Origin: Calditrichaceae bacterium
Lineage (GTDB): Bacteria; Calditrichota; Calditrichia; Calditrichales; JBFXGD01
Assembly (NCBI GenBank): GCA_050173015.1
Contig: JBFXLE010000004.1
Span: 128,001 to 192,000 of the forward strand
Direction: 5' to 3'
Length of the DNA: 64,000 nucleotides
This document shows, piece by piece, positions 2 through 6,443 of the stretch; the first letter of the stretch is position 1, and each line of letters starts with the position of its first letter. Made by a program: the position numbers and the translations under genes. The notes beneath the pieces were generated by a model. That model worked only from the letters and a program-made list of their open reading frames with translations, had not been told where the DNA came from and made no database searches.

Positions 2-1069
2 TTCAATCCGATTATAACACCGCAGGGATCATTTACTCCGCTGCAGATTGCCGGGGAATTTGCCGATAAATGGGCCGGTTATCCTGAAAGCATCATCCGG
101 CTGCTCAATCATATCATTACAAATAAAATTGAAAATGTCATTTTTCTCAGCGGGGATACTCATACATCGGGCATTGATGACGGGGCCAATTCAATCATCC
201 CCGAACTCATGGCCGGACCGCTTGACAGAACTAACAGCCGGATTGTCGCGCTGCTGGAGCAGTTTGGGGTGTTTATCTTCAATAAAGGCGGACAGACGAG
301 CACGCAGACAGATTTTGGAAACGCGTACGGTCGTGTCAGCGTATCAGGTACCGAATTGGTCACCCTGGAAGTTGTGAGCGAAAGTGGAAATGTCATTGCA
401 AGTCATGTTGTCAAATCAGGATTTCTCCCATCCCGTGTGGGGGGGCTTGTGGTTCCGGCCGGTCTGGCTTTTGGAGAATTGAATACAGGGACTATTGGAA
501 CGCAGGCTATAGTGATTGTCAATACCAGTGTTGACCCGCTTGTTGTGTCAAATATTACAAGCAGCGATCCGCTCCATTTCAGGGTTTTTCCAAAATCCTT
601 TACTGTTCTGCCCGGTACAGTCCGGCGCGCTGTAGTGACCTACTTTCCATTTGGTGCAGGAAAAACCCATCAGGCTCTTCTTACTGTACATACAAATGAC
701 CCCGACGGACCGGGTTATGTTCAGGTGTCCGGATCCGCGGCGGCTGCTTTCGCAATGGTAGAGGAACAGAGCGCTGTATCCGGAATGCCATATCAGTTTA
801 AACTGCATCAGAATCATCCAAATCCGTTTAATCCCCGGACAGATATTCAGTATAGCATACCGGAAATGAGCCAGGTTTCGATTACGGTGTTTAATGTTCT
901 GGGTGAAAGGATAAAAACTCTGATTAACGAGGAAAAACAATCTGGAAATTATTTTGTTTCCTGGGATGGGACTAATGAACAGCAAATTCCGGTTCAAAGT
1001 GGTATATATTTTTATACGATAACAGCCGGAAAATTTAAAGAAACCCGAAAGATGATGCTCTTAAAATAG
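2..1069 (+). CDS. 5'-truncated PhoD-like (alkaline phosphatase D family) secreted protein with Ig-like domain and C-terminal FlgD/T9SS-type sorting domain
   Basis: The frame of the 209..1069 ORF is open back to base 2 and reads ...ADKWAGYPES...VIFLSGDTHTSG..., matching the PhoD motifs D-x-W-x-G-Y and S-G-D-x-H. Then an Ig-like segment (LAFGELN...TNDPD) and a CTD (LHQNHPNPFNPRT...RKMMLLK). Confidence 0.75.
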   Translation, partial: FNPIITPQGSFTPLQIAGEFADKWAGYPESIIRLLNHIITNKIENVIFLSGDTHTSGIDDGANSIIPELMAGPLDRTNSRIVALLEQFGVFIFNKGGQTSTQTDFGNAYGRVSVSGTELVTLEVVSESGNVIASHVVKSGFLPSRVGGLVVPAGLAFGELNTGTIGTQAIVIVNTSVDPLVVSNITSSDPLHFRVFPKSFTVLPGTVRRAVVTYFPFGAGKTHQALLTVHTNDPDGPGYVQVSGSAAAAFAMVEEQSAVSGMPYQFKLHQNHPNPFNPRTDIQYSIPEMSQVSITVFNVLGERIKTLINEEKQSGNYFVSWDGTNEQQIPVQSGIYFYTITAGKFKETRKMMLLK

Positions 1070-1132
1070 TGTAAACCCGGAAAAATTTTAAACATGGTAC
1101 ATCAGAAAATGAAAAAGCCCGGATTAAATTTT

Positions 1133-1633
1133 ATGATGAAAAAGTTTCTAGTGATGAGCATAATAATTATGACGGGGGTAATGGCTTGTTCGCAGAAGTC
1201 GAAGCATTCGGAAAGGTCAAATGTGAAGTACAAAATCCAGAAATCGGACGAAGAATGGCGCAAAATTCTGACAAATGAACAATATATCATCACCAGAAAA
1301 AAAGGAACGGAATCGCCTTTTTCGGGAAAATATAACAACTTCAAAGAGCAGGGGATATTTGAGTGCGTATGTTGCGGAAATGAGTTGTTTAGTTCGGAAA
1401 CAAAATATAATTCGGGAAGCGGATGGCCGAGTTTCTGGGCTCCTTTCTCCAATGAAAAAATAAATAAGGATGAAGACCGAACTCTTTTCATGACGAGAAC
1501 GGAAGTGACATGCAGTCAGTGCGGGGCGCATCTCGGACATGTTTTTGAAGATGGTCCCGAACCGACCGGTCTCCGTTATTGCATAAATTCTGCCGCGCTA
1601 AAGTTTGTGGGGAATGAAGACGATAAAGAGTAA
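1133..1633 (+). CDS. msrB: Peptide-methionine (R)-S-oxide reductase MsrB, with lipoprotein-type signal peptide
   Basis: Motifs GTESPFSG, CVCCG and CSQCG (Zn), SGSGWPSF, HLGHVFEDGP, GLRYCINS. N-terminus MMKKFLV...VMAC looks like a lipobox. Alternative start at 1094. Confidence 0.93.
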   Translation: MMKKFLVMSIIIMTGVMACSQKSKHSERSNVKYKIQKSDEEWRKILTNEQYIITRKKGTESPFSGKYNNFKEQGIFECVCCGNELFSSETKYNSGSGWPSFWAPFSNEKINKDEDRTLFMTRTEVTCSQCGAHLGHVFEDGPEPTGLRYCINSAALKFVGNEDDKE

Positions 1634-4033: not shown

Positions 4034-4834
4034 ATGATATACCGTAGCCGCAAAATCATCCTGCCCTATCTGGTTTTCATTGTCTTGCTGTTGGGTAATT
4101 CGATCGTTTATGGACAGAAATTCCAATGGAAGGTTGGGGAAGAACTGGTTTACAAAGTGAAGTGGTCATTCATAAGACTCGGAACGGTCAAACTGCAAGT
4201 AGTGGATACAACAAAAATAGATAATGTGCCTGTTTATCATTTAAGATTTTTTATTGATTCCAATCCATTATTGTTTTTCGTCAATAATCACAGCGTGTAT
4301 AACAGCTTTTTTGATGAGAATTTTAGAATTCAGAAAACCTATTCACATGAAAAAATTGATAATGTGAATTACCGTTCCGAATACCTGTTCGATTACGCGG
4401 ACAGCATCATTCGTGTAATAATGACCGATATAAAGGATACGTCAAATACGATTCATAGAGAAATGGAGATGGAAAAACAGCTTTATGACGGTATTGGGAT
4501 GATCTTTTACGCCAGGGCAAACGCGGGCAAGACGAAGAATGATACATTAACATCTTTTTTTGAAACACAAAAAGGTCATGTCGTTATAAATTTTAAAGGA
4601 AAAAAAGAAGATATTAAAGTTGGTGTGTTTGATAAACCATATCAAACATACCCGCTGGATGGCAATATCAATATTAAGGGAATTGCCGGTGTAACCGGGC
4701 CTTTCGAAGGTTGGTTTGCCACTGACGGACAAAGACCACCTGTCAAAGCGAAGCTAAAAGTATTTATCGGAAACGTAATCGTTGAACTGGAAGAATGGAA
4801 GAACTGGGACCCCGGTGTAACGCGGAAGGAATGA
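4034..4834 (+). CDS. DUF3108-like exported protein
   Basis: Signal peptide; GEELVYKVKWSFIRLG at the N-terminus and W..TDGQRPPVKAKLKVFIG at the C-terminus are typical of this family. Confidence 0.65.
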   Translation: MIYRSRKIILPYLVFIVLLLGNSIVYGQKFQWKVGEELVYKVKWSFIRLGTVKLQVVDTTKIDNVPVYHLRFFIDSNPLLFFVNNHSVYNSFFDENFRIQKTYSHEKIDNVNYRSEYLFDYADSIIRVIMTDIKDTSNTIHREMEMEKQLYDGIGMIFYARANAGKTKNDTLTSFFETQKGHVVINFKGKKEDIKVGVFDKPYQTYPLDGNINIKGIAGVTGPFEGWFATDGQRPPVKAKLKVFIGNVIVELEEWKNWDPGVTRKE

Positions 4835-5003: not shown

Positions 5004-5486
5004 ATGCCGTCATTTGATGTCGTTTCAGAAGTAAATATGCACGAGGTTCATAACGCGGTCGATCAGGCGAACAGGGAAGTCACTACCCGTTTCGATTTCA
5101 AGGGCAGCGGAGCGAATTTCAGCCTCAATGAGGATGTAATAACGATGTATGGCGAGAGTGATTTCCATCTCAAACAAATGCTTGATATCCTGTACGCGAA
5201 ATTAAGCAAACGAGGGGTGGATCTGGCGTGTATGGAAATAAACACCCCGGAAGTATCAGGAAAAGGCGCGCGCCAGGAGGTCAAAATCAGACAGGGAATT
5301 GACGCGCCACTTGCAAAAAAAATTGTAAAAATAATAAAAGACACAAAGCAAAAAGTTCAGGCCTCTATTCAGGGCGATAAAGTTAGGGTAACCGGCAAAA
5401 AAAGGGATGATCTTCAGAATGTCATCGCGCTGTTAAAAAATACCGAGCTGGAAATGCCGCTGCAATATGAAAATTTTCGTGAATAA
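5004..5486 (+). CDS. yajQ: YajQ family nucleotide/c-di-GMP-binding protein
   Basis: MPSFDVVSEV...RFDFKGS...QASIQGDKVRVTGKKRDDLQ...LPLQYENFR-like C-terminus; RBS GAGGAG. Confidence 0.96.
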   Translation: MPSFDVVSEVNMHEVHNAVDQANREVTTRFDFKGSGANFSLNEDVITMYGESDFHLKQMLDILYAKLSKRGVDLACMEINTPEVSGKGARQEVKIRQGIDAPLAKKIVKIIKDTKQKVQASIQGDKVRVTGKKRDDLQNVIALLKNTELEMPLQYENFRE

Positions 5487-5520
5487 CCGGGTTGTATGTC
5501 CATTGTAAAAAATCGGAGAT

Positions 5521-5955
5521 ATGATGAAGAATATGTTAATAAATACCATGCTTCTGCTCGCATCTGTCATCTTTCTTTCCTGGGTTAATACCGGTGGAAA
5601 TACAAATAAGAATGGCGCCAAAATTATTTTTGATGAGGAAATTTATGATTTTGGTGAGGTGGTTTCAGGATCTGTTGTGGAACACGTCTTTATATTCCGC
5701 AATGCGGGCGAGGATACATTAATAATAAAACGAATAGACGGTGGCTGAGGTTGCACGACCGCACTTCTGAGTTCAGAAGCCATCGCGCCCGGAGAATCCG
5801 GCCAGCTAAAAGCGATGCTGGAAACAAAAAACAGGATCGGAAAAACCAAAAAAACGATAGAAATATTTTCGAATGACCCATCGTCTAATTTAAAGGAAAT
5901 ATTCTTAATTGGTAATGTTGTACCCGACAGCAGCCTTTTTTTAAAAACAGAGTAA
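5521..5955 (+). CDS. DUF1573-type exported Ig-like protein, probable selenoprotein (in-frame UGA 5746-5748 = Sec; 144 aa)
   Basis: YDFGEV...HVFIFRNAGEDTLIIKRIDGG-UGA-GCTTALLSSEAIAPGESGQLKAML...KTIEIFSNDP...IGNVV...KTE-TAA(5953-5955). Family pattern continues on both sides of the UGA, which sits at the first C of the CGC motif. Confidence 0.8.
5761..5780 (+). promoter_or_regulatory. Putative bacterial SECIS hairpin
   Basis: Stem CTTCTG (5764-5769)/CAGAAG (5774-5779) with apical loop AGTT (G in second position), separated from the UGA by 21 nt. Confidence 0.65.
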
Positions 5956-5996: not shown

Positions 5997-6443
5997 ATGC
6001 AGTATTCGGATTCTGAAAACCTGATAATCAATGATGAATTGGCAATCGCGAATGCTGAAATAATCTATACCGCATCACGAAGCGGGGGACCCGGCGGACA
6101 ACATGTAAATAAGGTGAGCAGCAGGGTCACTTTGAGTTTTGACGTATTAAATTCTCATTCACTGAGTGAATATCAACGAAGCAAAATCGCGGGGAAGCTT
6201 TCAACCCGTATTAATAAGCTGGGCATATTGAAAGTTTCATCAGGGAAACACCGAAGTCAGTACGAAAACAGGCGCGCCGCAACTGAAAGGTTTAGAGAAT
6301 TATTGCGAAAGGCTCTGACAGACGATCCGCCGAGGCAAAAAACAAGGGTTCCCACGGCGGAAAAAAAACGCCGGCTTGAAGAAAAAAGGTTAAAAGCTAT
6401 TAAAAAAAGATCAAGATTCAGGAATATCGATCCGGATGATTGA
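5997..6443 (+). CDS. arfB: Alternative ribosome rescue peptidyl-tRNA hydrolase ArfB
   Basis: SRSGGPGGQHVNK (GGQ motif), RSQYENR, basic C-terminal tail (RRLEEKRLKAIKKRSR). Confidence 0.93.
   Translation: MQYSDSENLIINDELAIANAEIIYTASRSGGPGGQHVNKVSSRVTLSFDVLNSHSLSEYQRSKIAGKLSTRINKLGILKVSSGKHRSQYENRRAATERFRELLRKALTDDPPRQKTRVPTAEKKRRLEEKRLKAIKKRSRFRNIDPDD

Follow-up and report, generated by a model that had tools for sequence, protein, structure and literature searches.

The locus at positions 5521–5955 of the 64,000-nucleotide stretch of DNA analyzed here (the window) raises the question of whether an in-frame TGA ends a short gene or encodes selenocysteine (Sec) within a longer one. An ATG at 5521 opens a 75-codon open reading frame on the forward strand (5521–5748) that is closed by TGA at 5746–5748, and the same frame continues without a stop for 68 more codons to a TAA at 5953–5955, giving a read-through product of 144 residues with U at position 76. 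The original prediction, made from the nucleotide sequence, proposed a hidden DUF1573-type selenoprotein with a SECIS-like hairpin, and its description of the frame (a stop after 75 amino acids, 68 stop-free codons beyond it, and a 144-residue product) was exact on re-reading. A second ATG of the same gene lies at 5524, and the spacing of the GGAG at 5515–5518 suits this start better than the ATG at 5521. A genome of the same genus (G001) carries a read-through orthologue that is 81% identical. A scan for promoters and terminators between 4800 and 6600 returned none on the forward strand, and the number of sites was not above that in shuffled sequences. We hold with high confidence that 5521–5955 is a real gene in which UGA is read as Sec, and that it is a member of the DUF1573 selenoproteins with a UGC motif, a kind that is already known. 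The features discussed below are collected in Table 1.

Table 1. Coordinates of the candidate selenoprotein gene, its parts and a possible associate, counted from the first nucleotide of the window.
Feature	Position	Strand	Basis
Selenoprotein gene (highly probable), 144 codons and TAA	5521–5955	+	Frame; PF07610 match; read-through orthologue in G001
N-terminal hydrophobic segment, residues 1–22	5521–5586	+	AF2 helix; similar segments in relatives
DUF1573 Ig-like (PapD/ASH-like) domain, residues 36–129, across the UGA	5626–5907	+	PF07610; AF2; Foldseek
UGA most likely read as Sec (U76), first position of U-G-C	5746–5748	+	TGA in 28/31 loci, Cys in 3/31; CGC in 115/115 Cys-form domains
Probable SECIS hairpin, stem 5764–5769/5774–5779, loop AGUU 5770–5773	5764–5779	+	Comparative evidence; bSECIS fit
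Only SelR/MsrB gene of the genome, 179 aa, lipoprotein-like signal (..GVMAC..), tentative associate	1094–1633	+	3.9 kb upstream

The UGA is most likely read as Sec because a protein domain extends across the stop, the genome encodes the machinery for Sec insertion, Sec and Cys replace each other at this position among relatives, and the hairpin that follows appears to be under selection. When the read-through protein is aligned to the DUF1573 model, a check that the original prediction had put forward, a single PF07610 domain spans the UGA with 85.9 bits (E 2e-24; profile positions 2–94 of 98), which passes the gathering cut-off of 26.1 bits; PF22544 also matches in Pfam. The 68 codons downstream of the UGA are conserved at the protein level across 28 loci, with overall identities of 31–82%, and the downstream half is thus not degenerate.

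Read-through searching covered 41 genomes, that of the window and those of 40 relatives, and gave matches in 30. After one locus was dropped (L024, a 23-bit match in a 1622-residue frame), 31 homologous loci remained, of which 28 carry TGA and three carry TGC or TGT (L036, L052, and L053) in the column that corresponds to the first Cys of CGC, although the compared genomes are kin, so that these counts are not independent events and overstate the independent support. All 115 Cys-form domains read CGC at the matching site. The UGA therefore falls on the first Cys of CGC, as proposed, and the alternation of TGA with Cys codons among relatives shows that the TGA is no peculiarity of this one assembly. 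When contigs were scanned with the family alignment, all matches were Cys forms, since Cys codons had been used to back-translate the peptide pattern, and these 80 loci were kept as a control set. One locus (L165, a short frame outside the family) was dropped from the metagenome set, and the two alignments (A1 and A2) were built without L051, a Sec form with another downstream structure, and without L053, a Cys form of 243 residues.

The genome that contains the window has a paralogue with TGA at the same column that is 42% identical (G000:C2:4046-4396; L023:1474-1935) and lies close to transposase-like ORFs and a Cys-rich ORF of 327 residues. L051 (G040:C100:7418-7780 with flanks) encodes a 350-residue multi-domain DUF1573 protein with U-G-C in another family of the class; it does not have the hairpin of the window clade, and a different stem (GGAUG...CAUCC) follows its UGA. 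Many records labelled as Ignavibacteria (L081, L065, L076, and about 30 more of L054–L133) encode a DUF1573 protein of some 240 residues that has two domains and two CGC motifs in the Cys form, in conserved housekeeping surroundings with ORFs that resemble TsaB, AccD, and TsaE, as named by eye.

The genome encodes the components of Sec insertion that the original prediction had advised looking for, and its failing for want of this machinery did not come to pass. These include a tRNA-Sec (69.2 bits; called tRNA-SeC(tca) by ARAGORN), selA (516 bits), selB (362 bits), and two selD genes; selC, selA, selB, and selD all score over curated cut-offs. The tRNA-Sec forms a series with tRNA-Tyr and tRNA-Val, all encoded on one strand (L001:1139-1591). 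The selD genes are located at G000:C2:247845-248780 (L020) and G000:C27:38679-39602 (L019). One selD is a selenoprotein itself, with an in-frame TGA (CAGUASKL) and a SECIS loop of GGU, and the other lies inside a 738-residue open frame that suggests a fusion protein. In the Sec-containing selD the SECIS loop begins 20 nt after the UGA, compared to 21 nt in the DUF1573 gene.

Across the class, the signature of UGA plus hairpin was found in 33 of 86 genomes, and a reversed-pattern control gave 0. By family, the signature occurs in f1 (1/1), f4 (1/1), f3 (23/26), and f6 (7/10), and it was found in none of the genomes of f2 (0/10), f5 (0/17), f7 (0/4), and f8 (0/16). The gene selA was detected in 71 of the 86 genomes, including 32 of the 33 with the signature. 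In the remaining signature-bearing genome (G028), selA was not found, and gaps in the assembly, which is 87% complete, are the likely reason. Family f2 has neither selA (0/10) nor the signature and has a Cys form (L036 in G002); a Cys form without selA would be the pattern expected on loss of the Sec trait, and the switch from Sec to Cys is seen in the one family of the class that is without selA.

The sequence that follows the UGA, CTTCTG-AGTT-CAGAAG, occurs once in the window and forms a hairpin with a 6-bp stem and a 15-nt spacer after the UGA; the perfect stem and the loop beginning 21 nt past the UGA agree exactly with the earlier description. Taken alone, in a single sequence, this hairpin is not remarkable, and its stem is short. 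The 45-nt UGA region folds with −10.9 kcal/mol, which is equaled by 55 of 200 shuffled sequences (z −0.60), and the window as a whole contains 148 perfect 6-bp hairpins with loops of 3–8 nt, or about 0.04 expected per 16-nt start range. Rfam at its gathering thresholds gave no match in the window. Since the single-sequence fold is no better than the shuffles, the case for a SECIS element rests on the comparison across genomes.

In an alignment of 27 Sec forms, from which L051 was left out because its downstream structure differs, the stem lies in identical columns and 98.8% of the cells are paired, versus 33–51% with a slid partner. One stem pair varies on both sides, being U-A in 21 forms and C-G in six, and this compensatory change, which answers the proposed check for covariation in a conserved hairpin, alters the protein from LLSSE to LLSSG (Glu to Gly). 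Of 41 further copies from metagenomes, 34 have U-A at this pair and seven have C-G, and C with A, the one combination unable to pair, occurs in 0. This is the single covarying pair within the 16-nt stem-loop in 26 orthologous genome copies and the 41 metagenome copies, and only the paralogue in the window's genome departs from the stem-loop of the clade, with a hairpin (GTCCTG-AGTT-CAGGCG) that keeps four of the six stem pairs.

Codon usage in the stem points in the same direction. The codons CTG, AGT, and TCA are each invariant in the Sec forms (27/27), with synonymous sites flanking the stem varying freely, and the 80 Cys-form domains with the same L-L-S residues draw on the full sets of six Leu and six Ser codons; the protein level accounts for some of the LLS conservation, as the Cys forms read LLS too. 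The hairpin occurs in 0 of 115 Cys-form domains, and the mean fold energy is −7.48 kcal/mol in the Sec forms versus −1.63 kcal/mol in the Cys forms, which are an imperfect control as they were chosen by peptide pattern and come from other phyla. The hairpin thus behaves as a selected RNA element. It is an unusually clean example of a SECIS element within a coding sequence, with frozen L-L-S-S codons and a compensatory base pair that comes at the cost of a Glu-to-Gly change.

The dimensions of the hairpin are also those of a bacterial SECIS element. The bSECIS model has a loop of 3–9 nt, a stem of 4–16 bp, a G at loop position 1 or 2 with a U after it, a distance of 16–37 nt from the UGA to the loop, and an energy of −7.5 or lower (PMC13188914, Fig. 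2 legend). The hairpin agrees with this consensus in its 4-nt loop, 6-bp stem, G at loop position 2 followed by U, UGA-to-loop distance, and fold energy (PMC13188914). The original prediction had the SECIS loop opening with a G; the G is instead the second base of the AGUU loop, which nevertheless satisfies the published bacterial model. The stem-loop of the clade differs from the consensus in being far more invariant in sequence than the model requires. By analogy with the standard bacterial mechanism, the mRNA hairpin, located 15 nt past the UGA, would recruit SelB carrying Sec-tRNA(Sec), which would meet the ribosome paused at the UGA.

Insertion of Trp, Cys, or another residue at the UGA, by near-cognate decoding or a suppressor tRNA, is very improbable. 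The inserted residue is not distinguishable from sequence alone, but every Cys-form relative has Cys in this column, which makes a classic Sec/Cys pair, a dedicated hairpin that satisfies the bSECIS model follows the UGA, and the signature tracks selA in all but one of the genomes that carry it. Moreover, the genetic code is not reassigned, because TGA ends 12 of the 40 stop-to-stop frames of at least 200 codons in the window; the frames closed by TGA at 4834, 6443, 20495, and 31316 had been cited to this effect in the original prediction, and correctly so. It is even less probable that the TGA is a true stop, with a pseudogene or a 75-residue fragment before a decaying remnant, for although TGA serves as an ordinary stop at other places in the window and the public entries of two relatives end at it, the 68 downstream codons are conserved and complete a DUF1573 domain, the TGA is held at one column in more than a third of the genomes of the class, and Cys takes its place where selA is missing.

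Exact sequence look-ups showed that the genes of two relatives are truncated at the TGA in public databases, as had been anticipated for automated pipelines. One is represented by a 75-residue [quoted passage not shown], and the other by a cluster with a 64-residue representative, [quoted passage not shown]. The 75-residue fragment of the window itself was absent from the same protein collection in an exact look-up.

Whether Sec forms of DUF1573 are already catalogued was a question raised with the original prediction, and they are, with a UGC motif and an NCBIfam model (NF041425). Published selenoprotein tables list "DUF1573, UGC" (PMC9312934; PMC13188914), and this listing traces to Zhang and Gladyshev 2007 (PMC1976440). 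In that paper OS_HP2 appears among six newly described selenoprotein families; it then comprised two genes, from deltaproteobacterial symbionts of worms, and had no Cys homologues (PMC1976440). Given the NCBIfam name and the order of the table rows, OS_HP2 would be the family that reviews list as DUF1573.

The best NCBIfam match of the window protein is NF041425 ("OS_HP2 family (seleno)protein"), which aligns over 97 of 98 positions with 77.9 bits (E 5.9e-22) and does not reach its cut-off of 100. The same model matches all 29 clade members scanned, with a best E-value of 1.5e-25. The protein has both the PF07610 domain and the U-G-C motif by which the "DUF1573, UGC" kind is defined in the tables, and because the NF041425 cut-off is not reached, it is filed under this broader kind and not under NF041425. 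It resembles the OS_HP2/DUF1573 selenoproteins in its PF07610 domain, in a U-G-C whose Sec replaces the first Cys of CGC, and in the SECIS-like hairpin that follows. In contrast to OS_HP2 as reported in 2007, the window clade occurs in 33 of 86 genomes of one class and has Cys homologues, and in contrast to the proteins covered by NF041425, it falls below the cut-off and forms a separate branch. The kind is therefore already known, and the gene belongs, as judged from sequence comparison, to a large new branch of it below the reach of the curated model. This branch is apparently one of Calditrichia. A literature search, judged by titles and the opening parts of abstracts, returned no earlier link of Caldithrix to selenocysteine.

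General knowledge of selenoproteins is unchanged by this gene. Its value lies in annotation, as a clade of exported selenoproteins that is present in over a third of the genomes of its class and in 41 metagenome copies falls below the cut-off of the only curated model, which as a consequence would not name the branch.

The protein itself is probably exported. An AF2 model computed on the family alignment (mean pLDDT 90.7) has an eight-strand beta sandwich, preceded by a helix at residues 2–22 and a low-confidence linker, and it places U76 in the turn between strands 67–74 and 78–82. Residues 1–22 probably serve as an export signal or signal anchor; relatives have similar hydrophobic N-termini, many of which end in AQ. 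The mature protein has just two Cys-type residues, U76 and C78.

Foldseek matches (E 3.8e-7 to 1e-5) include, among those listed, the PapD-like domains of HYDIN (2e6j and 2ys4), the ASH domain of OCRL (3qbt), CEP192, and the Ig-like domains of Vibrio VesB and VesC. These have the beta-sandwich fold in common with the window protein but differ in being protein-interaction modules without Sec or a CxC center, at identities of 10–19%. The closest solved bacterial fold among the matches listed is PDB 2qsv, an uncharacterized protein of Porphyromonas gingivalis W83 (rmsd 1.9 Å over 108 columns, 18% identity), which differs in that it is without CGC at the matching place in the HMMER alignment. A search of the PDB by sequence profile gave only weak matches, with 2qsv at E 0.059.

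To our knowledge, DUF1573 has no known function, and the Sec/Cys pair therefore marks the CGC site as probably chemically active. A Sec/Cys pair is usually a sign of a redox-active site, and for this reason our best guess, which we give an even chance of being right, is that the gene product is a selenol/thiol exchange protein of the cell envelope. According to the structural model, the product would have U-G-C within a beta-turn of its Ig fold, at the place of the C-G-C in Cys-form relatives, and this site would cycle between a selenolate/thiol state and a Se-S bond. In DsbD, the N-terminal domain is periplasmic and Ig-like and hands electrons to partner proteins through a redox-active pair of Cys residues, and the window protein may work in a similar way, as an Ig-like redox carrier in the envelope, although the Cys spacing of DsbD differs. 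No DsbD chain was among the best 50 of at least 500 Foldseek matches.

A distinctly less probable alternative is that U-G-C is a binding site for a soft metal, for instance Cu(I) or Hg(II), and that the protein acts as a periplasmic chaperone or scavenger with no redox exchange. Periplasmic copper proteins use C-x-C sites and beta-sandwich folds; however, no copper or mercury gene is prominent among the listed conserved neighbor clusters of the 31 loci, which, going by clusters alone, argues weakly against a metal-binding role. At the top of these clusters stand MsrB, an acyl-CoA synthetase-like ORF, and a long membrane protein that may be a MATE-type efflux protein.

The presence of MsrB among these clusters suggests a more specific and rather doubtful role, in which the protein would be an envelope reductant that recycles an exported MsrB in the manner of the DsbD N-terminal domain. 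Of the 31 related loci, 10 have an exported MsrB of one domain immediately downstream and in the same orientation; when only the 28 loci with 690 nt or more of downstream sequence are considered, the count is still 10. Among the family metagenome loci, the arrangement is shared by 5 of the 28 that extend 700 nt or more downstream, a count that includes one locus (L161) in which the frames overlap by 4 nt. These downstream MsrBs have their own signal peptides and match PF01641 with 171–175 bits in the three that were scanned. In the window's genome the sole SelR match is the upstream gene given in Table 1, and a metagenome locus (L146) is arranged likewise. The downstream MsrBs read SGSGWPSF at the place where two-Cys MsrBs presumably have their resolving Cys, and they would consequently need an outside reductant. 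If the selenoprotein filled this need, the U-G-C selenol may attack the sulfenic acid of the exported one-Cys MsrB, a step that is proposed by analogy and considered as doubtful as the role itself.

On the other hand, the adjacency to MsrB is confined to one subclade (genera g3, g7, g8, and g13 of family f3, together with metagenome copies reading RLKSG/S-U), MsrB is on another contig elsewhere in the class, and none was found within 3 kb of any of the 80 Cys-form loci, which come from other phyla; neighboring genes alone are also weak evidence. The look-ups point to Caldithrix abyssi DSM 13497 as a cultured relative with MsrB directly downstream, and this neighborhood offers one testable hypothesis of function. 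If true, recycling of MsrB would be the first function for DUF1573 and would mean selenium-dependent repair of methionine sulfoxide outside the cytoplasm. Among the papers listed by a literature search, there was no earlier link of DUF1573 to MsrB or to a periplasmic reductant role.

The selenoprotein gene, for which envelope selenol/thiol exchange is our preferred function, is directly followed at 5997–6443 by a gene for a protein of 148 residues that combines an RF-1 domain with a GGQ motif and looks like an ArfB-type ribosome-rescue factor or peptidyl-tRNA hydrolase. This RF-1-domain neighbor was not seen among the conserved neighbor clusters of relatives. Upstream of the selenoprotein gene, the window encodes a DUF520 (YajQ-like) protein at 5004–5486 and, at 4034–4834, a DUF3108 protein whose N-terminus resembles a signal sequence. 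At the edge of the window (2–1069) is the 3′ part of a large gene with an Ig-like stretch of the DUF1573/choice-of-anchor type (..TVHTNDPDGP..) without CGC, and the C-terminal tail of its product has what we take to be a resemblance to a type IX secretion sorting domain.
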